From an uncultured Acidobacteriota bacterium (GTDB taxonomy: Bacteria > Acidobacteriota > Terriglobia > UBA7540), in contig CAWDSK010000006.1 in NCBI GenBank assembly GCA_963804995.1, forward strand, positions 160,001 through 224,000: DNA of 64,000 nt, written 5' to 3'. Made by a program: the position numbers and the translations under genes. Below, piece after piece: positions 2,718 to 39,294 of this stretch; within the stretch, counting starts at the first letter, position 1; each line of letters starts with the position of its first letter. The notes under the pieces are model-generated. The model saw nothing but the letters and a program-made list of their open reading frames with translations, had not been told where the DNA came from and did not search any database.

Positions 2718-2781
2718 CGGGAGATCGCAGACCCCAAAAGACGGGGGTCTGCGCCAGCCCCGATGATGGGGTGTGGCTACC
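2718..2781 (+). repeat. REP-A element (CGCAGACCCC-loop-GGGGTCTGCG) ending in GTGGCTACC
   Basis: Hairpin 2726-2753; near-identical to copies flanking the RAYT gene. Confidence 0.85.
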
Positions 2782-3234: not shown

Positions 3235-3386
3235 GGTAGCCACGGTCAGCGCTGTTCTGACGGTGGGTTCTTTCGTAGAAACCGGAGGCCTAACCGTCAG
3301 GAAGAGTTGAACCCGGCACCTGTCGGCCGCTGGGGTATCGGGCATGAGAAAAGCCCACGGTCAGAACGGCACTGACCGTGGCTACC
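3235..3386. repeat. REP-B doublet (REPIN-like): two inverted GTAG-type REPs
   Basis: GGTAGCCACGGTCAGCGCTGTTCTGACGGTGGG (3235-3267) and CCCACGGTCAGAACGGCACTGACCGTGGCTACC (3354-3386). Confidence 0.85.
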
Positions 3387-3681: not shown

Positions 3682-3737
3682 AGATCATTCTCCTCCATTA
3701 CCCTTGCTTTCATAGGAGGTAGCCACGCTGGCTGGCG

Positions 3738-5650
3738 GTTGCGGTAGGGATACCGGTTACCCGGTACCCCCCGCACGGATCCGTACGTGCGCTGGTTAGC
3801 GCATACGGCTCTTATCTCGGATGTGTGGCGGCGAACCGTTGGGATGGCCAAGGATGCACAACGTGCGGAGCAGGCAACCAGCAGGCCGCAAGCTTCCCCA
3901 GTCGGTCCCAGTTGAGGCGGTGGCGTTGACTGCGTTGACGCAGTTGTGTTCGCCACAGTCGGGTCAACCGTTCCCGAAAGATTCGCAGGCGGTCGAGGTT
4001 TCCCGGTACCGCGTGATAGTTGAAGTAGCCTTGCACGACCGACCGGAGCCATTTACCCGTATCCGCGATGGGATCGTGCCGACGCTGCCGGAGTTGTTGC
4101 TTGAGTTCCTGCAACTTCCCCCGCAGGCGCTTGCTGATCGTCTTCCGCTTCACGGTAAATTGCCCCCTCCGGTTCTTCCCGCTGATATGCGTGAAGCCCA
4201 GAAAGTCGAACGTCTCCGGCTTACCTTCTCCTCTCCGTTTCCGGTAAAGTTCGGCAAACGGCCCGAACTCGATCCGGCGCGTTTTGTCAGGATGCAGTTC
4301 CAATCCAAACTTCCCCACCCGCTCCCGGAAATCCTCCAGAAAGCGGTCGGCTTCCGTCTGCGATTGGAATCCAAGGACCGTATCGTCGGCATACCGCACC
4401 ACGACCACGTCTCCCCGGGCGTGCTTCTTGCGCCACGCCTGCACCCACAGGTCAAAGACGTAGTGCAGATAGATATTCGCCAGCAGGGGCGAGACCACCG
4501 CCCCTTGTGGCGTACCCATCTCCGTCTCCGACCATTCGCCTTCCTCCCTCACCCCGGCTTTCAGCCATTTCTGGATGAGCCGGAGAATCCGGGGGTCGGC
4601 GACGCGATGCTGCACGAACTTGAGCATCCATTCGTGGGATATCGAATCGAAAAATCCACGAATGTCCGCGTCAAGAACGTAGTTCACGTGCTTCACCGTG
4701 AGCGCGTACGAGAGCGCGTCCAGCGCTTGATGCTGGCTGCATCCCGGTCGAAAGCCATACGAGAAGCCCAGAAAGTCTTCCTCGTAAATCGCATTGAGGA
4801 TGGTGACCACGGCCTGTTGGACGATCTTGTCCTCCAGTGCCGCAACCCCCAACGGACGTTGCCGCCCGTCGCCTTTCGGGATATACGCCCTTCGCGAGGG
4901 CTTCGCTCGGAATGCTCCGCGGTGGACCCGGCTGTGCAGATCGACGAGTCGACCTTCCAGCCCGCTTTCATACTCCTGCCACGTCATGCCGTCTACTCCC
5001 GGTGCAGCTTTTCGCTTCAAGGCGTAAAAGCTTTCCCGCAGCAGATCGACCGTTAAGTGGTGGAGCAAGGCCGTGAACTTCATCTCCCTGTGTTCCTTCG
5101 CGGCTTTCCGCACACCCGCGAGTCCCTGGGACACGCGTGCCCCGCTCTGTGTCGGGTGCGTGTTAGGCCAACGGGTGTTCTCCTTGATCAGCGGCCTTCC
5201 CTCCTCATTCTCCGCCAACGGCTTCCCGTCTTTGTTCAAATGATTCATCGGTACTGTTCCGCTGTCCGACTCCTCGAAAGCGTGCAGGCGGGCTGTACGG
5301 CCATCGCCTTTTCCCGCCGTCCGGCCACGATCTACGGCGGCCGGCGCCTCCGAGGTCTCCCGGTTCTCGTGCAGAAAGTGTCTAGGCGTGTCTGGGGTCT
5401 ACGACTACGCAGGACTGTGCCGGAACTCGCGTTGGCGTCCCGGCCTCATGTTGCCTTCCGTTTAGTCTGAAAACGTCGGCGTCCTGATTGGACATTTTCG
5501 AAGCTCAATACCCAGCCCACCTATTCCCCTGTTTACGCTTCACCGTGCGCCTCACGACGCCCAGCGCAAAACTCGGGGCCGAGTGGATCGCTGCTCCTTC
5601 CTCGTGAGAAATTTTCATTCTCTGCTTTCTGCCGGTTTATCCCGGCGCAC
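3738..5650 (-). mobile_element. Group II intron (1913 nt) inserted in a REP-A arm
   Basis: 5' GTGCG at 5650; 34-nt domain V GAGCCGTATGCG...CGTACGGATC at 3811-3778; domain VI ending CTACCGCAAC at 3738; joined exons rebuild an intact REP. Confidence 0.93.
3812..5248 (-). CDS. ltrA: Group II intron reverse transcriptase/maturase without endonuclease domain (probably bacterial class E)
   Basis: AAPGVDG, IPKGDGRQRPLG, GTPQGAVVSPLLANIYL, YADD, FDFLGF, X domain; stop abuts domain V. Confidence 0.95.
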   Translation of the reverse strand: MNHLNKDGKPLAENEEGRPLIKENTRWPNTHPTQSGARVSQGLAGVRKAAKEHREMKFTALLHHLTVDLLRESFYALKRKAAPGVDGMTWQEYESGLEGRLVDLHSRVHRGAFRAKPSRRAYIPKGDGRQRPLGVAALEDKIVQQAVVTILNAIYEEDFLGFSYGFRPGCSQHQALDALSYALTVKHVNYVLDADIRGFFDSISHEWMLKFVQHRVADPRILRLIQKWLKAGVREEGEWSETEMGTPQGAVVSPLLANIYLHYVFDLWVQAWRKKHARGDVVVVRYADDTVLGFQSQTEADRFLEDFRERVGKFGLELHPDKTRRIEFGPFAELYRKRRGEGKPETFDFLGFTHISGKNRRGQFTVKRKTISKRLRGKLQELKQQLRQRRHDPIADTGKWLRSVVQGYFNYHAVPGNLDRLRIFRERLTRLWRTQLRQRSQRHRLNWDRLGKLAACWLPAPHVVHPWPSQRFAATHPR

Positions 5651-5695
5651 CAGACCCCCGCCTTTTGGGGTCTGCGTTCTCCCGCAGGGATTCTC
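5651..5695 (-). repeat. REP-A left of RAYT (5' exon of intron; remainder at 3718-3737)
   Basis: Reverse complement gagaatccctgcgggagaacgcagaccccaaaaggcgggggtctg matches 6025-6069. Confidence 0.85.
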
Positions 5696-5734: not shown

Positions 5735-6010
5735 ATGCCTCTCTACAAGCGTACCTGGTGCCGAAAGATGCTCACGCGTCTGCAGTTGCCTCCCAGCGTC
5801 CATGATGAATCACACTATCGGCTCTGGCAGCGCCGGTTCTACCCTTTCAGTGTTTTTACTGAAAAGAAACGCCAGGAAAAATTGAAGTACATGCACAACA
5901 ATCCCGTGAAGCGCGGGCTGGTCAGTTCCCCGGAAAATTGGCCGTGGTCGAGCTGGAGATTTTACTTCTTGCAGGATACGTCGATCCTCAGGATGGACAG
6001 GTTGGGTTGA
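5735..6010 (+). pseudogene. REP-associated tyrosine transposase (RAYT, IS200-like Y1), internally deleted; HUH region absent
   Basis: LWQRRFY...EKLKYMHNNPVKRGLV..PENWPWSS C-terminal RAYT signature, only 91 aa, no H-hydrophobic-H motif; flanked by inverted REPs. Confidence 0.85.
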
Positions 6011-6024
6011 GCCCTGAGTTCTAT

Positions 6025-6078
6025 GAAATCCCTTGCGGGAGATCGCAGACCCCAAAGGGCAGGGGTCTGCGCCAGCCA
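6025..6078 (+). repeat. REP-A right of RAYT
   Basis: gaaatcccttgcgggagatcgcagaccccaaagggcaggggtctgcgccagcca. Confidence 0.85.
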
Positions 6079-6083
6079 CTCGC

Positions 6084-7505
6084 TTAAAGCAATACCGCGG
6101 CTGCAAAGGTCCGGCCGGCGTTCATCAAAAAGTGCTCGACGATGGGGCCCACGGCGAAGGCGGGCAGGAAGGTCAGCGCGGCCACAATGATGATGGTGCC
6201 GACCAGGAGCAGTGAAAACTGTAGATCGTGGGTCGGCATCGTCCCACTGGTTACGGGCGTCTTGGGCTTGAGGGCCAGGCTGCCGGCGATGGCCAGCACC
6301 GGGATGATGATCAAGAACCGCCCGGCCAGCATCGCCAATCCCAGCGTGAGGTTGTACCAGGGAGTATTGGCATTGAGCCCGGCAAAGGAACTTCCGTTGT
6401 TCCCCGTGGCGCTCGCATAGGCATATAAGATTTCGCTGAATCCGTGGGGACCGCGGTTGGCAAGGTTGGCGGTGGGCGCTCCGGGTGGGTTCAGGTAGGA
6501 GGCAGGGCGAAATCCCATCAGGGTGCTCGCAGCCGCCATGAGCAGGATACAGGCGGAGCAGGCGATCATGGCCAGCATCACCATCTTCATCTCCCGCGCC
6601 ATGATTTTCTTTCCCAGGTATTCAGGGGTTCGGCCCACCATCAGCCCACCCACAAATACGGCCACCAGGGTGATGAGCAGCATTCCGTACAAACCCGACC
6701 CCGGCCCGCCGAAGATCACCTCACCACACTTCATGTTGAACATCTGAACCAGCCCGCTGAGCGGCGTGTAGCTGTCGTGCATGCTGTTGACCGCTCCCGA
6801 ACTCGTGGCGGTACTCACCACGGAAAAGAGGGCTGAACCCGCAATCCCAAAGCGCACTTCCTTGCCTTCAAAATTGCCGCCGGGATTCGTGGCGCTCGCG
6901 GATGGGTCCACACCCTGCTGCCCCAGGAGCGGATTGCCACGTTGCTCCATCGAGTAGGCAATTATGCTTCCGGCCGCCAGCAGGCTGAACATTACGAAAA
7001 ACAGCGCCCAGCCCTGACGGCGGTCGCGCACCATTCGGCCGAACGTGTGAGTCAGCCCGGCGGGAATCGCCAGGATCAGGAGCATCTCCAAAAAGTTCGT
7101 AAAGGGAGTGGGATTCTCAAAGGGGTGGGCGGAACTGGCATTGAAGAACCCCCCTCCATCGGAACTGAGGAGCTTGATCGACTCCTGGGAAGCGACCGGG
7201 CCCCCCGGAATCATCTGCGCACCGCCCTCCAGCGTTTCGAAAGTCTGCCAGCGTTGCAGAATGTAGAAGAGGAGGAAATTCCAGAGGCCAAAGGCCAGGC
7301 ACGCGGCGGCATACTGGGTCCAGCGCTGCTCTCTTTCTCTTATGCCCGCCAGCTTGTATATAAGATTTTCGAGGGGCAATAATAAGGGCGAGAGCCAAGT
7401 GCGCCGGCCTTCAAAAACCCGCGCCATGTAAGCGCCCAGGGGCTTGGTGATGACCAGTAGCAACAGGAAGAAGAAGAGCAACTGTGCCAGGCCAATCTGA
7501 TTCAT
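6084..7505 (-). CDS. kdpA: Second KdpA paralog with in-frame loss of about 125-130 aa including the first filter loop (possible pseudogene)
   Basis: Collinear with 13547-15361 but jumps from LQRWQ to TLEGG; TNTNWQ missing; [30 protein letters not shown] present; GAGGTG SD. Confidence 0.85.
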   Translation of the reverse strand: MNQIGLAQLLFFFLLLLVITKPLGAYMARVFEGRRTWLSPLLLPLENLIYKLAGIREREQRWTQYAAACLAFGLWNFLLFYILQRWQTFETLEGGAQMIPGGPVASQESIKLLSSDGGGFFNASSAHPFENPTPFTNFLEMLLILAIPAGLTHTFGRMVRDRRQGWALFFVMFSLLAAGSIIAYSMEQRGNPLLGQQGVDPSASATNPGGNFEGKEVRFGIAGSALFSVVSTATSSGAVNSMHDSYTPLSGLVQMFNMKCGEVIFGGPGSGLYGMLLITLVAVFVGGLMVGRTPEYLGKKIMAREMKMVMLAMIACSACILLMAAASTLMGFRPASYLNPPGAPTANLANRGPHGFSEILYAYASATGNNGSSFAGLNANTPWYNLTLGLAMLAGRFLIIIPVLAIAGSLALKPKTPVTSGTMPTHDLQFSLLLVGTIIIVAALTFLPAFAVGPIVEHFLMNAGRTFAAAVLL

Positions 7506-7603
7506 GGCGGGTTGTCTCACCTCAAGGCTTGCTAAAGAGAACGAAAAATTGGGCCTGCCGCTAGCACAAATTCTTCGTGACAGGTTTGGAAGGGCAGGGC
7601 TAA

Positions 7604-8073
7604 ACAGGTTGCGGAAAAAGCCGTTGGAGCTGCCATTATCAACACCACCCCTTCATCTCCTGCTCAGCACCAACCCTTTATCTTGTCAGCACCACCCCGG
7701 CGCTCGGCGCGCCACCCCTCCTGATTTAGGAGGGGTGGCGCCGGAGGTGACGGGGTGGTTATTCGAATCCGCCGGGCGGCGTGAGGCAACCATCAGCACC
7801 ACCCCGGCGCTCGGCGCGCCACCCCTCCTCATCTGAGGAGGGGAGTGTTTTTCAGAACTCCCCTCCTGATTTAGGAGGGGTGGCGCCGGAGGTGACGGGG
7901 TGGTTATTCGATCCGCCGGGCGGCGTGAGGCAACCATCAGCACCACCCCGGCGCTCGGCGCGCCACCCCTCCTCATCTGAGGAGGGGAGTTCTGGAACAA
8001 CTTCCCTCCTGATTTCCGTGGCGCCTTGGGTGACGGGGTGGTTATTCGCATTGCGGTGTTTTCAGCAGCCTGT
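7604..8073. mobile_element. MITE-like unit: 15-bp terminal inverted repeats enclosing a ~145-bp-period REP array
   Basis: ACAGGTTGCGGAAAA (7604) versus reverse complement ACAGGCTGCTGAAAA (8073), 13/15; internal CCCCTCCT-N-AGGAGGGG palindromes. Confidence 0.65.
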
Positions 8074-8083
8074 AGAGTCCCGC

Positions 8084-10168
8084 TTAGAATTTAACCAGGA
8101 TATCGATATCGACGATGTTCTCCGTCCTGCGAAGATCCGGATACCAGACGCCGACTGCGCCGCATCCCCCGATGGTTGGGGACGGCGTGCCGTCGTTGCA
8201 GGCGTATTGGCTGGGGAAACCGTTATTGGTACCCGAAGGAGGTGTAATCCCTCCTGAACCTGACCAATACGGTACATTCGCGTGGCGATGATCAAACTCC
8301 CACCGGAACGTGATGTACTGCTTGGGCATCCAGTCAAAAGTGATGGAACCGTCCCAGGCTTTGAACGGGTCCCCGGGATTCTCCGTAAAGTAAGGTGAAT
8401 TGAGGGCTGCGGAAGCGGCTGATTCTCCATTGATGGGCGGGAGCAACACCAGATAGCGTCCCGGATTGTTGATCTGGCCGCCCCCGAGCGTCAGCGCATA
8501 CAAGTCCTTTTTGAACCAGAACCGGTTGTAGAGCATATAGCCGACGAAACTCTGCTTGGGACCGTTCACTGTATTGCCATGGCAACTCACACCACCGCCA
8601 AATTCGCAACCCAGATCACCGGTGAAGGTGAACGCCATCTTGTCCAGGGTTTTGAGCGGCTTGTCGTAGTATTTGACCTCCACGCTGTCGTCAGTGTGGA
8701 TGCGGCCGCGGTTTGGTATATACAGATCATCGTGGCCCAGGGTGTAATTGTTGGAAATGATGTTCATCCAAGGTTTGGGAGTCCATTTAATCTGCCCTCC
8801 CAGGCCGGGCCGGTGGTTGGCTGAGCCGTACGCCTGCCACCCATTGGTGAACCATGGCTCAATTTTCAGGTGCGCCGTGGGGAAAATCTGGATGCGCACG
8901 CCATTGAAGAACCACGGTGTGTTGGAGGAAACGTACGAAGGTTGGTAGGCCCAATTGTCGAAGTTGTAGTAGCTGAAGAGGCCGACATAGGACATGAAAA
9001 TTCCGGCATCAACGTTAATCCCGTGCAGAACATCGAAATGGTATCCCCCGTAAGCCTCCGAAACGTAGCGGTAAGCATTGGCGAGATCCCATTGACCGTT
9101 GGCGGGGCTCGGGTCATTGCGCGGGGTGGTTACGGAATACATGCCAAACTGGGTCATCAAGCGGGCGCGAACGTTGTCATAGTGAAAGTCGCCGCCCACG
9201 CCGAGCTGCTCCACCTGGACTTCATTGGAGCGGAAGATTTCACTCGACCCGCCCATCGAGTGGTCTTTGGGATGGTTGAAATCGGAGGTATAGGTAATGT
9301 CAGCTCGGATCTCGGGCGTAAAGAATTTCGAGTCCCAGTAAATATCTTTGGTGCGGGGGTTGCCGTTCAGCCAGCTCCAGTCGGCGTCTGAAAAGGGTTC
9401 CACCTTTTTGGGTTTCTCGGGGGTCGTCTCCTGCGAGGGCATAACCGCAGCCCCGACCGCAGGGGAAGCGGTGGGCGGAGTGGCGGCCAGTGGCGTCACG
9501 GCGATGGGCGTGAGTAAAGGCGCCTTGGGCTTTTCTGGCGGCTTCGAGCCTGCAGTTCCTTCCAGCGAAGCTACAAGTATGGGCGCGGCTGGGGAAGCAG
9601 GCGGGTTGACGCCTTTCTCCGGTGCAGCGACAGGGGAGGGCTGGGTCGAGATTGATGCCTGGGTGGCCGGCTTAGCTTCCTTGGCTTCCAAAACCGCCAG
9701 GCGTTGCTCCAATTGGTTGAGCCGATCGAGCAATTGCCTTTCCCGCGCGGTCAGGGGTTCATTGCCCGGGTTGTCGGTTAGCGGATTTGCAGGTGTGTCA
9801 GCGGTGCGAGCCGAAACAGTCGATCCCTTGGGACCCGTCGGAACCCGGAGAGCGAGGTCAATCAGAACGCTCTGCTGTGCCGCCAGTTCGACGGTGGTCA
9901 CAGGGGAGCTTCCGAATCCCTCTTTACTTGCCGTCAATTGGTAATGCCCCGGTTTGAGATTCGCAACCAGGAAAGCTCCACGGTCATTGCTGACGAGGCT
10001 ACGCTCGTTGTTCTCGTCCAGACTGCGCACCACGACTTGCACTCCCGGCAACGGCAATCCGGCGTCGCCGCGTGTAACCCCCTGGAGCCCGCCGAGCCTC
10101 GATTGGCCGAATGCCAGAGATGATGAAAGTGCTACCATCAATGCGCAAAGGCTGCTGATTCTCACCAT
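8084..10168 (-). CDS. Outer-membrane beta-barrel (putative porin, BBP2/DUF1597-like) with N-terminal carboxypeptidase-regulatory-like domain and Pro/Ala linker
   Basis: Signal peptide after GGAGGT SD; GHYQLTASKEGF; DAGIFMSYVG, NGWQ; terminal Phe (ILVKF). Confidence 0.75.
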   Translation of the reverse strand: MVRISSLCALMVALSSSLAFGQSRLGGLQGVTRGDAGLPLPGVQVVVRSLDENNERSLVSNDRGAFLVANLKPGHYQLTASKEGFGSSPVTTVELAAQQSVLIDLALRVPTGPKGSTVSARTADTPANPLTDNPGNEPLTARERQLLDRLNQLEQRLAVLEAKEAKPATQASISTQPSPVAAPEKGVNPPASPAAPILVASLEGTAGSKPPEKPKAPLLTPIAVTPLAATPPTASPAVGAAVMPSQETTPEKPKKVEPFSDADWSWLNGNPRTKDIYWDSKFFTPEIRADITYTSDFNHPKDHSMGGSSEIFRSNEVQVEQLGVGGDFHYDNVRARLMTQFGMYSVTTPRNDPSPANGQWDLANAYRYVSEAYGGYHFDVLHGINVDAGIFMSYVGLFSYYNFDNWAYQPSYVSSNTPWFFNGVRIQIFPTAHLKIEPWFTNGWQAYGSANHRPGLGGQIKWTPKPWMNIISNNYTLGHDDLYIPNRGRIHTDDSVEVKYYDKPLKTLDKMAFTFTGDLGCEFGGGVSCHGNTVNGPKQSFVGYMLYNRFWFKKDLYALTLGGGQINNPGRYLVLLPPINGESAASAALNSPYFTENPGDPFKAWDGSITFDWMPKQYITFRWEFDHRHANVPYWSGSGGITPPSGTNNGFPSQYACNDGTPSPTIGGCGAVGVWYPDLRRTENIVDIDILVKF

Positions 10169-10265
10169 GGAAATAACCTCCCTGTGTAAATCCGCAAGCT
10201 TCTGGTGATCCCCCAAGCCCTTCTTAGTCAGGATACAAAACTCCACATCAAGAACGTCTAAATGG

Positions 10266-10551
10266 GCTGGTGTCTCAGTTTGAATCTCCATCTTAGAGTT
10301 TTTCCCGAACGAACTCGACCAGGACGTACCCGATGAGCGCGGCCATCACAGCAATTACAAAATTCTCCGTGGTAAAAATATCTCCGATAGCCCAAATCAA
10401 GCCCATTTTCTGCCCCATACCTGAGCGGCCAAATTCCCCCATCAAAAGATTGGAGTAAAACAGGAATATAATGAAACCTGCCTCGATTATCGCACGCCAA
10501 GCCTTTTTCATCGTTGTCCAGCCCGGACAAAATTCAAACTGAGACACTACC
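10266..10551. mobile_element. 286-bp non-autonomous insertion cassette with one passenger gene; 8-bp TSD CTAAATGG
   Basis: TIRs GCTGGTGTCTCAGTTTGAA / TTCAAACTGAGACACTACC; CTAAATGG at 10258-10265 and 10552-10559. Confidence 0.88.
10293..10511 (-). CDS. 72-aa two-helix membrane protein (passenger)
   Basis: MKKAWRAIIEAGFIIFLFYSNLLMGEF...FVIAVMAALIGYVLVEFVREKL fills the element. Confidence 0.7.
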   Translation of the reverse strand: MKKAWRAIIEAGFIIFLFYSNLLMGEFGRSGMGQKMGLIWAIGDIFTTENFVIAVMAALIGYVLVEFVREKL

Positions 10552-10578
10552 CTAAATGGGTAATAAGGATTCCATAAA
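10552..10578 (-). promoter_or_regulatory. KdpE-like direct-repeat operator, split by the insertion cassette
   Basis: TTTATG-N5-CTTATT-N5-TTTAG, 11-bp period, resembling E. coli TTTATA-N5-TTTACA. Confidence 0.55.
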
Positions 10579-10842
10579 TGACGGAACCCACCGGTTAGTT
10601 CGAAATCAGAAGTTCAAAAATCCAGAACCCATCTAAGTGCTGTCCTGAGAATGAGTTGTCCCGTGCAAATCGAGCTTCGTGCAAGTTGGATTTATGCCAT
10701 GCAATCTACCGGAACTGCACGGGTCACCCTTAAATTCACGATTTTCGCGAATTCGCGGGTTTTTCAACTTACGGATTCGCGGTTGGTCCTGAAGGGCACA
10801 CGAAGAACCCTCGGCCAGATACGTCGTGATGGTGACTCGGAA

Positions 10843-11424
10843 TCAGGGAAGTGGAAAACGCTTGTCCAGCTCCATATTCAGGGCCAGGACATTGACCCGC
10901 GGCTCGCCCATAAAGCCCAGGGTCCGACCCTGCGTGTTCTGCGCAATGAATTGCTGCACCTGTTCGAGGCTTACGCCGCGCGCTTGGGCGACTCGGGGCG
11001 CCTGCGCCAGAGCCGAGGCGGGGCTCAGGTCCGGATCCAACCCGCTGCCCGAGGTGGTGAGCAGGTCGGCAGGAATGGGACCGTCGTAGCCCGGGTTTTC
11101 CTTGCGGAACTTGTCGACGTCAGCTTTGACTCGATCCATCAGCTTCTGGTTCGTAGGACCGAAGTTGGTGGCATTCGAGGCGCTGGCATCGTAACCATCG
11201 TTGCCGGCGGCGGAGGGCCGAGGATGAAAGTATTGAGGCTTCGAGAAATTCTGGCCAATCAAAGCGGAGCCTACGATTCTTCCCTCCACATTGATGAGGC
11301 TGCCGTTGGCGCGGCGAGGAAACAACATCTGGCAAAGGCCCGTAACGATTCCGGGATAGATGAGGCCGGTCAGGACGGTCATCACGAAGGTCATCCGAAG
11401 AGCCGGAAGAAGCTGGTAACGCAT
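10843..11424 (-). CDS. kdpC: K+-transporting ATPase subunit C
   Basis: [43 protein letters not shown]. Confidence 0.98.
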
Positions 11425-11433
11425 CGTATCTCC

Positions 11434-13542
11434 TTAGGCCAGGTGCAACAGGCCGAGCAGCCGGTCAATCAGCCAAATGCCCGGAAAAGGCGCGATGATG
11501 CCGCCGACACCGTAGATCAACAAGTTCTTGCGTAACATTTGGGCGGCACCTTGGGGCCGATACTTAACACCCCGCAGGGCCAACGGGACCAGCGCAATGA
11601 TAATCAGCGCGTTGAAGATAACCGCCGCCAGGACCGCACTTTGCGGCGTATGCAAATGCATAATATTCAACGCATTGAGTGCCGGATAAGTTGCCATGAA
11701 CATGGCCGGAATGATGGCGAAGTATTTCGCCACATCGTTGGCGATGGAAAACGTGGTCAGGGCGCCGCGCGTGATCAGGAGCTGCTTGCCGATGGCCACA
11801 ATTTCGATCAGCTTGGTGGGATTGCTGTCCAGATCCACCATGTTCCCGGCTTCCTTGGCGGCCATGGTGCCCGTGTTCATGGCCACGCCGACATCGGCCT
11901 GCGCGAGGGCAGGCGCATCATTGGTGCCGTCGCCGGTCATGGCCACCAGGCGGCCTTGCGCCTGCTCTTTCTTGATGTACTCCATCTTGTCTTTGGGTGT
12001 GGCCTGGGCGAGGAAATCATCCACTCCCGCTTCATTCGCAATCGCCGCGGCGGTCAGCGGATTGTCTCCGGTGATCATGACAGAGCGGATTCCCATGGTC
12101 CGCAATTGACCAAGACGGTCACGCATGCCGCCTTTGACGATATCCTTGAGGTGCACGATCCCCAGCAATTGCCCCCCGTCCGCCACCGCCAGGGGTGTGC
12201 CTCCCATGCGGGAGATGCGATCCGAAATCTCGCTGAAGTCCGGCGGAACCTTGCCGCCTTTTTCGATCACGAACTGCACGATGGCGTCGGTGGCTCCCTT
12301 GCGCAGATGGCGGCCATTCATATCAACGCCGCTCATGCGGGTGTACGCGGAGAACGGAATGAAGTGCGCCTCGTGTTCGGCTACCTCACGCCCGCGGAGG
12401 TTGTAGGCTTGCTTGGCGAGCACCACGATCGACCGGCCCTCGGGAGTTTCATCGGCCAGGCTGGCGAGTTGGGCGGCGTCCGCCAACTCGGCTCCGGTCA
12501 CGCCCTGGGCGGGCAGGAACTCAACGGCCTGCCGATTGCCCAGCGTGATAGTGCCGGTCTTATCGAGGAGCAGCGTGTTGACATCACCCGAGGCCTCTAC
12601 CGCCTTGCCGCTCATGGCCAGCACGTTGTGCTGCATGACGCGATCCATGCCCGCGATGCCGATGGCGGAAAGCAAGCCCCCAATCGTGGTGGGGATCAGG
12701 CACACCAGCAGCGAAACCAGCACGGCGACACTGGGTATCTCTCCACTGCCTGCGGAGGACACGGCGTAGGCGGAAAAGGGTTGCAAGGTTACGACGGCCA
12801 GCAGGAAGATCAGTGTCAGGCCGGCAATCAGAATATTGAGGGCGATCTCGTTGGGAGTCTTCTGGCGTTCCGCGCCTTCGACCAACGCAATCATGCGATC
12901 CAAGAACGTTTCGCCCGGGTTGGAGGTGATCCGAACTCTGATTTGGTCAGAAAGGATCCTTGTCCCGCCTGTGACCGCACTGCGATCCCCACCCGATTCG
13001 CGAATTACCGGAGCACTTTCACCGGTGATGACGGACTCATCCACCGTTCCTATTCCTTCGATGACCTCGCCATCGCCGGGAATGATGTCGCCCGCTGTGC
13101 AGATCACGATGTCTCCGGCCCGAAGCTGGGAAGCTGGAACCATCTCCGTTTCCTGACCTCGCGTGATGCGCCGCGCCAGCGAATCCGTTTTGGTCTTGCG
13201 CAGAGTGTCGGCCTGCGCCTTGCCACGCGCCTCGGCCATGGCCTCCGCAAAATTGGCGAAAAGCACCGTGAACCATAACCACAAGGCAATCTGCAAAGAG
13301 AAACCCACCCCCGGAGCACGGAGGAGGAGGTCGCGAACCAGGAACACCGAGGTCAGCGCGGCTCCCACCTCCACCACAAACATGACGGGATTTTTGGCGA
13401 GGGTGGCAGGACTCAACTTCCGGAACGAATCTTGCACCGCACGCTTCACGATGGGTGGATCGAAGAGCGGACGGGCCCGCCCCAGTTTCTTGGGGAGGAG
13501 CGTCGCCTCTTCCGTGGGGGGAAGCGCTACAAGTGTGGCCAT
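11434..13542 (-). CDS. kdpB: K+-transporting P-type ATPase subunit B
   Basis: [25 protein letters not shown]. Confidence 0.99.
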
Positions 13543-36440: not shown

Positions 36441-36695
36441 CTAACTACCTTTCTTTTCATAAACATCGTGGAAAAACAACCATAACTTACTTGTTTTCAT
36501 CAACATCGCTAGACTTGCCAAATTGTCGCTTTTGTTTTCCTTTGTTTTCATACACATCGTCAGACTATCCTGATCGAAATTATTTTCGCTATTTTTCCTA
36601 CCCGCAGTAAATGCAACTCATTTTATTTCAACTAGATAGGTTTTTGCTAAAAAACCCTCTTCACGCCTAACCCCCTTTATTTTCATGAACATCTT
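36441..36695. repeat. Cluster of AT-rich direct motifs TAAC-N-TTNTTTTCATNAACAT
   Basis: Cores at 36451, 36491, 36542, 36677 and degenerate 36621. Confidence 0.7.
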
Positions 36696-37227
36696 CACAA
36701 ACAGCGGGCGCGGGGTGCCGAAAAACGGAAGAACTTCAGCCGCGTCTTGGCACGGCGCTGCGCTCCCCCCAGAGTTGCTCCGTGACCTCTGGGTGAAAGC
36801 TCGTCGGGACGCAGAGGACACAGAGAAACATTTGCCAAGAAAACCAGCCTTCACGGCAGGGCATAGCAGATTCCCGATCTTGGGGTCTGCGGTTCTTCGA
36901 GTGCTGTCTGGACACATCATAGCGCTACGCTTCCTTACCTCTATTGTGCTCTTAATCTAGTGGGTTATGTCAATAGGATAAACAGACGTTTGGGCTACCG
37001 GTAGCCCAAAAATGCAAGGCGAGCGACCGATTGTCCGAATATGGTCCGAGAAGGAGCGTATGCGCAACCCATCATGTCTTGTAATGGCGGGGCTTACCCT
37101 GCAGGGCCCCGCCCGGGCGGAGGACAGGCACGAGGCCTGCCCCTACGTCATCTTCAGCTCTTGCAACTGGGTTGTGGACGATATGATTCCGTCAGGGAGA
37201 ATCCATTCGCGGGGGAGAGGAGTAAAC

Positions 37228-39217: not shown

Positions 39218-39294
39218 GCGCCTGTAGCTCAGATGGATAGAGCGGCAGACTTCGAATCTGTAGGTCGGGAGTTCGAGCCTCCCCAGGCGCGCCA
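39218..39294 (+). tRNA. tRNA-Arg(UCG)
   Basis: Cloverleaf with GCGCCTG/CAGGCGC acceptor stem, loop CT-TCG-AA (anticodon 39252-39254), TTCGA, encoded CCA. Confidence 0.97.

Follow-up and report, generated by a model that had tools for sequence, protein, structure and literature searches.

A class E-like group II intron inserted in RAYT-associated REP palindromes of an Acidobacteriota genome

Between positions 3738 and 5650 of the 64,000-nt stretch of DNA that we analysed (the window), a group II intron on the minus strand interrupts a short palindrome that recurs throughout the genome. The locus raises the question of whether such a dispersed repeat is the homing site of the intron and, if so, what is recognised there. 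The original prediction, made from the letters of the window, proposed that the intron is targeted to a multicopy REP element by a 6-nt guide and exploits REPs as an abundant safe harbour. Its main parts and neighbours are the following.

The intron, its guides and the palindrome it splits

3738-5650, minus strand: group II intron with a IIB-like (class E-like) ribozyme and its IEP in domain IV; 38 full-length genome copies, 99.7-100% identity
3812-5248, minus strand: intron-encoded RT/maturase, 478 aa, YADD at 286, with RVT_1 and TIGR04416 matches
5464-5469, minus strand: EBS1 CAGACU, pairing with exon positions -6 to -1 (covariation)
5491-5494, minus strand: EBS2 UGUC, pairing weakly with exon positions -9 to -12 in the REP loop (covariation)
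5402, minus strand: EBS3 G, pairing with the exon +1 C (covariation)
3778-3811, minus strand: domain V, 34 nt, AGC triad (fold)
3738-3777, minus strand: domain VI, with a bulged A close to the 3' end (fold)
5651-5676, minus strand: 5' exon, the body of the split REP hairpin with IBS1 at its end
3730-3737, minus strand: 3' exon, comprising the two final bases of the stem and the complement of the foot (CTGG at 3732-3735, plus strand)
5735-6010, plus strand: remnant of a RAYT (REP-associated tyrosine transposase), with about 276 nt deleted in frame relative to the intact paralogue at C6:722336-722818
6044-6078, plus strand: second, empty, inverted REP closing the REP-RAYT-REP unit, in the disfavoured orientation
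2726-2760, plus strand: empty REP of the same family as the intron target, in the disfavoured orientation

The 1,913-nt intron has exact boundaries, GUGCG...AAC, and carries the hallmarks of group II: a GUGYG start, an AY end, domains I, V and VI with a bulged A, and a YADD RT/maturase. Rfam family RF02005 matches 5615-5395 on the minus strand (170 bits), and the RT/maturase scores 342.7 bits against the TIGR04416 cut-off of 300, whereas a profile search of its 478 aa detected no endonuclease (HNH) domain. The domain V of 34 nt with an AGC triad that had been predicted is found at 3811-3778. The claim that removing 3738-5650 regenerates a complete REP also holds: with the boundaries exact, excision makes the hairpin whole again, giving a 10-bp DNA stem and an 8-nt loop with a folding energy of -12.2 kcal/mol.

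CAGACU (5469-5464), proposed as EBS1, sits in the 7-nt loop of the hairpin named for it. Folded alone, that hairpin has no significant stability (z -0.78), an unexceptional result, and the assignment is settled by covariation instead. From 149 related loci, 115 with a readable EBS region and exon were reduced to 64 intron types, across which the EBS1 loop and exon positions -6 to -1 form Watson-Crick pairs at 345/384 positions, against a shuffle mean of 132 and maximum of 165. The stretch after CGAAAA, taken as EBS2, pairs best from -9 or -10, and both registers exceed all 2000 shuffles; in the window intron this pairing is short and includes two G-U pairs, and its position -10 is C in 37 of the 38 occupied sites. 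The EBS3 column (window position 5402) pairs with +1 in 51/53 types, and in 11/13 of those in which +1 is not C. As the related types are kin, the shuffle values overstate significance; the guides nevertheless differ widely. The check suggested at the outset, covariation across homologous introns with their exons tabulated, supports EBS1, EBS2 and EBS3 alike.

The target hairpins are GTAG-type, RAYT-associated REPs, an identity given by the foot in the reverse complement of the 3' exon and by the flanking of intact RAYT genes. The foot, which is GTAG (24/39) or of CTGG type, lies 5' of the short palindrome on the strand opposite the intron, and the insertion point is in the 3' arm of the stem, two base pairs above its base, in the strand that does not carry the foot. 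There are 137 GGTCTG-type footed hairpins in the genome, and 2 of 62 favoured-strand REPs fall within long ORFs (a mask of frames of at least 300 codons only). This REP family flanks intact RAYTs at C6:722336 and C5:58407 as well as the RAYT remnant in the window, whose in-frame deletion takes out the stretch with the HUH motif. The foot tetranucleotide GTAG is essential for the E. coli RAYT and, by analogy, the REP would be bound and cut by its own RAYT (both after the consulted part of PMC8266576).

Several features of the surroundings may be recorded here. For three RAYT matches out of the ten best (C6:722217, C5:56440 and the window), the directly flanking REP, near the gene end or start, contains an intron copy. 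In the window, the intron and the RAYT remnant have two KdpD sensor-domain genes on one side and a kdpA-like gene, part of a potassium-uptake cluster, on the other (35-2412 and 6084-13542), with the end of the kdpA-like frame at 6084, just past the second REP. A second GTAG palindrome family, with at least 116 genome copies, forms an inverted pair at 3236-3385 and 3719, and a tRNA gene lies at 39218-39291 (plus strand).

Occupied sites and the replication strand

The genome contains 40 copies of the intron, of which 38 are full-length and two are cut by contig ends. All 38 readable 5' junctions hit one identical position in the RAYT-associated REP hairpin, which confirms the REP as the target of the intron. 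The 5' exons end in RGTCYG in 38/38 readable cases and the 3' exons start with CGCYA in 39/39. Among the 5,173 RGTCYG/C sites in the genome (the slash marks the insertion point), the 38 in use all form seven or more of the ten stem pairs, and the 4,234 with six or fewer are all empty. Occupancy tracks the EBS1 match: it is 31/137 for GGTCTG, 1/18 for AGTCTG, 4/111 for GGTCCG, 0/112 for GGACCG and 0/62 for ACTCTG.

All but one of the 40 copies lie outside long ORFs, and the exception touches the edge of the long-ORF mask. What the data show is this placement and the specificity of insertion; a safe harbour as the selective reason stays conjectural. Full copies differ by 3.5 nt on average and 37/38 retain an intact ORF, which suggests recent mobility. 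Flanks and REP loop variants differ on both sides between nearly all copies; two copies share a 70-nt upstream flank, so the copies are not all independent.

Seven polymorphisms are shared among the 38 full copies, and 20 of the 21 pairs of them show all four combinations, a shuffling that takes either exchange between copies, by recombination or gene conversion, or cross-talk in assembly polishing. In RNA data, 19 runs contained sequences of relatives only (at most 0.17 of words), and four runs mapped to the intron yielded pieces of relatives and no joint skipping the intron.

Insertion follows the replication fork. With dnaA at C2:123,925, intron orientation flips across dnaA on that contig, and rRNA and skews place the leading strand on minus for C3, C4 and C6 and on plus for C5 and C8. 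By these replichores, drawn on draft contigs from dnaA, rRNA and weak contig-level skews and leaving out C1, C7 and C9 (8/40 copies), 31 of the 32 copies that could be assigned run in the direction of the fork. Local GC3 skew was tried as a replichore marker, was noisy (28/40 concordant) and was replaced by dnaA, rRNA and contig-level skew. GGTCTG-type REPs are filled in 25 of 51 cases on the lagging-strand template, compared with 1 of 66 on the leading (p = 2e-10), whereas the REP types that the intron does not use show no strand bias (GGACCG, 50 vs 47). The original prediction had invoked a preference for single-stranded targets, and the bias towards the lagging-strand template fits it. It had also listed three unoccupied sites. 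Those at 2746 and 6064 are indeed complete empty REPs, but they are on the plus strand, an orientation almost never used on this contig, and they are empty because that strand is disfavoured. The third, at 36884, is not equivalent, being a degenerate half-site and then the flank of an unused arm.

Related introns and other REP families

Nearly all named relatives of the intron are from Acidobacteriota. Among the 64 intron types (IEP 53-100% identical), 54 are at non-REP sites, and ten use REPs or REP-like hairpins, L060 clearly in only one of its copies. The objection named beforehand, close homologues at unrelated non-REP sites, thus applies in part, through these 54 types and one sister copy in genome G026; REP use is a trait of several sub-lineages and not family-wide. 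In G026, the 88% sister intron has one of its three copies at a non-hairpin site. The 92% sister in G005, with EBS1 CGGACU, has all six copies in REPs with C at -2, whereas the window genome has 34 T and 4 C at that position (Fisher p = 3e-5, each genome being one burst); at least three of the six target REPs in G005 have a further mismatch, and 26 GGTCTG-type sites there are empty. In G058, a 53% relative with EBS1 GCGGGC has 18 copies, all of which end another RAYT-flanking palindrome (591 copies) and 17 of which are on the lagging template. EBS1 is CAGAGC in two 61% relatives, whose target REPs belong to a family found beside intact RAYTs.

Within the host family, a scan found the intron 5' domain in 31 of 133 genomes, a tally that includes G138. 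In the 60 loci examined from host-family genomes (one without an EBS, the G138 locus left out), five REP types or families are occupied, by introns with the guides CAGACY, CGGACY, CAGAGU, CAUACU and UGGCUA; the analysis of RAYT linkage covered targets of guides other than CAUACU and UGGCUA. L063, which has the UGGCUA guide, enters immediately after the foot of another GTAG palindrome family, the one that forms the inverted pair at 3236-3385 and 3719 of the window.

The types that target REPs do not group as a single clade (AU test p = 3e-6, or 3e-5 without the longest branch), and at least four changes in REP targeting lie on well-supported branches of the tree. Thinning took out 21 near-duplicate types ahead of the tree, and the clade tests also omitted 10 rows that were long or partial; the root, set by a class D protein outgroup, is on a long branch and is not trusted, so the changes may be gains or losses. 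Judged from guides and sites together, REP targeting recurs in several lineages, with EBS1 changed for each REP family.

The wider group shows further variety. Derivatives without an ORF, 630-655 nt long and with intact ends (L199, L201, L205, L206, L210, L225-L228, L230-L232, L234, L237, L240 and L241), include some that are multi-copy per genome and several that are in REPs, suggesting mobilisation in trans. The 5' end is two bases longer (GAAAGCG, GUAAGCG or GAUAGCG rather than GUGCG) in L060, L088, L199, L201, L229, L061, L062 and L033, many of them REP-targeting. A 5' remnant of a UGGCUA-guide sibling lies at C5:460087 in this genome, and that of a distant intron with EBS1 CAGAGC, at G000:C1:441116-440891, is in a second RAYT-linked REP family. 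Another sibling group targets a dispersed non-hairpin repeat with 41 copies here and 81-112 in four relatives; the repeat occurs in the window at 36448-36466 and 36539-36557 (minus strand), and 5' sibling-intron remnants are in the repeat at C2:652257. Finally, the large L107-L162 sister group (IEP 72-78% identical) enters, in either orientation, a single motif of about 30 bp with two imperfect inverted arms around a 6-bp spacer, which we take to resemble a tyrosine-recombinase site.

What is recognised, and comparison with known systems

The three EBS pairings alone do not suffice to define a target. On the favoured strand, REPs matching all three are used in 23 of 47 cases, whereas non-REP sites matching all three are used in 0/38 cases outside long ORFs and 0/58 inside. 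The opposite arm of the same hairpins, which has the same IBS1 and IBS3 and is without the EBS2 match and the +2 to +5 bases, is used in 0/75 cases on the favoured strand. An added determinant is thus needed, either flanking bases or the hairpin. A sequence rule (A at -15 and -14, C at -10, and RGTCTG/CGCYA) selects 53 favoured-strand sites, all of them hairpins and 24 of them filled; because every rule-fitting site is a hairpin, sequence and structure read-out are inseparable in this genome. Three observations make us favour a protein that reads sequence rather than the hairpin: IBS1 has to be single-stranded to be read, no insertion uses the rival arm, and a G026 sister copy is at a non-hairpin site.

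The same observations bear on what else might produce this distribution. If the DNA hairpin itself were required, as for class C introns at terminators and attC, and sequence pairing merely set the register, this would account for three observations: all occupied sites are hairpins, matching non-hairpin sites are empty and several separate lineages ended in hairpins. We nevertheless consider such a requirement unlikely: IBS1 lies inside the stem, which must open for pairing, the full set of EBS1, EBS2 and EBS3 is kept, the opposite arm of the same hairpin goes unused, one G026 copy is at a non-hairpin site and 54 related types use non-REP sites. Selection could instead have acted after broad insertion at any GGTCTG/C, with only the harmless REP insertions surviving. 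The extragenic position of 39 of the 40 copies would accord with this, as would the 481 favoured-strand non-REP RGTCTG/C sites within long ORFs. Sites that are equally extragenic, however, are unused, both the 75 opposite arms and all 272 non-REP sites outside long ORFs, which makes this reading very improbable.

Scarcely credible is the passive multiplication of one intron-bearing REP, by RAYT/REPIN movement or recombination, or a copy number that is partly an assembly artefact. The shuffled polymorphisms (20/21 pairs) are what such a history might leave, and a few copies do share a flank, but the flanks and REP loop variants of nearly all the others differ, and the pattern repeats in G005, G026 and G058. 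Passive spread would also give no fork bias, and the REP types that go unused are unbiased.

We think it quite probable that an endonuclease-less class E-like intron retrohomes into the RAYT-associated REP by the standard guide-directed route, the same as that described for RmInt1/RmInt2 in the parts of PMC5894124 and PMC4615759 that we drew on. At the fork, the RNP would encounter the REP in single-stranded form; EBS2 would then base-pair to the REP loop and EBS1 to the arm, to the exclusion of the REP 5' arm, whose sequence equals that of EBS1. The protein would read the flanking bases +2 to +5, and perhaps -15 and -14, after which the intron RNA would reverse-splice and nascent lagging-strand DNA would prime reverse transcription. 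One guide would thereby open more than 100 mostly extragenic sites, leading to the recent burst to 40 copies. Each insertion would put 1.9 kb between foot and hairpin, probably ending use of that REP by the RAYT, and related introns may have reached other REP families through changes in EBS1.

Bacterial group II introns are described as having three target specificities, namely homing sites, terminators and attC sites (PMC4424553, in part). We found no account of group II introns homing to REPs in the published literature, subscription papers and supplements lying outside the search; the consulted portions of PMC7306698 mention neither palindromes nor repeats, those of PMC8919778 no palindromes and those of PMC3733652 no introns, and RAYT appears among the occasional neighbours of RT genes in the consulted portion of PMC8934634. 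The chemistry is known, but the REP target class is apparently undescribed, and comparison of introns and exons supports well its use by several lineages with matching guide changes.

The system is homing by mechanism but has a repeat family for its target, so that a single intron has more than 100 sites and can reach 40 copies in a burst that needs no class C chemistry. It illustrates how guides are reprogrammed in nature to keep up with REP variants, links two mobile-DNA systems, RAYT/REP and retroelements, and provides, in its filled and empty REPs, a natural data set for the targeting rules of class E. It also raises a problem for biochemistry, namely how the ribozyme gains access to bases tied up in a DNA stem of 10 bp, and might find use in multi-site integration in Acidobacteriota. 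More broadly, we tentatively propose that REPs and other dispersed repeats may be a distinct, repeatedly evolved intron target class: Acidobacteriota class E-like introns, including ORF-less ones of about 650 nt, would retune a 6-nt guide to an expanded REP family, fill at most half of the fork-accessible copies, curb RAYT/REP by severing the foot and leave strand-asymmetric REPs behind.

Among known classes the intron appears best placed in class E, as class E-like, a placement supported by IEP identity and by an alpha-prime in a terminal loop. Over 317 aa the IEP shares 57% identity with a disrupted RT encoded on pRmeGR4b; with the intact ltrA of that plasmid the figure is 34%, and the disrupted RT falls among the relatives of the intron in a tree with this one named reference and class F not included. 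The disrupted class E intron S.me.I4 of Sinorhizobium meliloti GR4 has been placed on pRmeGR4b (PMC5894124, in part), and it was by location on the plasmid that we equated the RT with S.me.I4. Class E criteria include an alpha-prime at the tip of the Id3 stem-loop, and a 5-nt domain V loop is given for IIE/IIF (PMC3753933, in part). Here the terminal-loop sequence CGCCA (CGCUA or CGAUA in relatives) faces the Ib loop, as judged by eye and unscored, and the domain V loop has 4 nt closed by U-A in the fold of the window intron and 5 nt in the G058 relative. With the class E introns S.me.I4 and Cl.be.I2 our intron shares an IEP related to the RT equated with S.me.I4, a IIB-like fold, a terminal-loop alpha-prime, EBS2 and the lack of an endonuclease; the REP-hairpin homing site and the 40 copies are its own, and its lagging-strand bias of 31/32 much exceeds the moderate 2- to 5-fold one reported for class E (PMC8919778, in part).

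Class C membership was considered and rejected, given a full 6-nt EBS1, covarying EBS2 and EBS3, a site inside the 3' arm and a 34-nt AGC domain V; the prediction that the intron is not class C therefore stands, on EBS2, insertion within the stem and domain V. The domain V of class C introns is short, with a CGC triad. These introns are without EBS2 and part of EBS1 (PMC3753933, in part). Like ours, they are multi-site, extragenic, hairpin-associated (at terminators and attC) and inserted on the lagging template, but class C inserts downstream of an intact stem-loop and this intron inside the stem.

Closer in behaviour are the endonuclease-less class D introns RmInt1 and RmInt2, which share EBS1-3 pairing, distal exons read by the protein to about +5 and a lagging-template bias (PMC4615759 and PMC5894124, both in part). 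They too target multi-copy mobile DNA, homing into ISRm2011-2 and into the inverted repeats of ISRm17, and the two-base linker before IBS2 is as in RmInt2 (parts of the same work). The protein here is of another class, however, and the target is no IS but a 30-nt non-coding palindrome with more than 100 copies and with IBS1 in the stem.

REPs are already known as targets of insertion sequences. In Pseudomonas putida, group II introns were 2 of 9 near REPs and absent from the REP-breaking elements, at least in the consulted part of PMC1525189. The REP-targeting insertion sequences ISPa11, ISPpu9, ISPpu10, ISRm19, ISRm22 and ISPsy8 resemble our intron in that all copies within a genome break REPs at a fixed point (PMC1525189, in part), but they are moved by DNA transposases, whereas the element described here is an RNA-guided retroelement.
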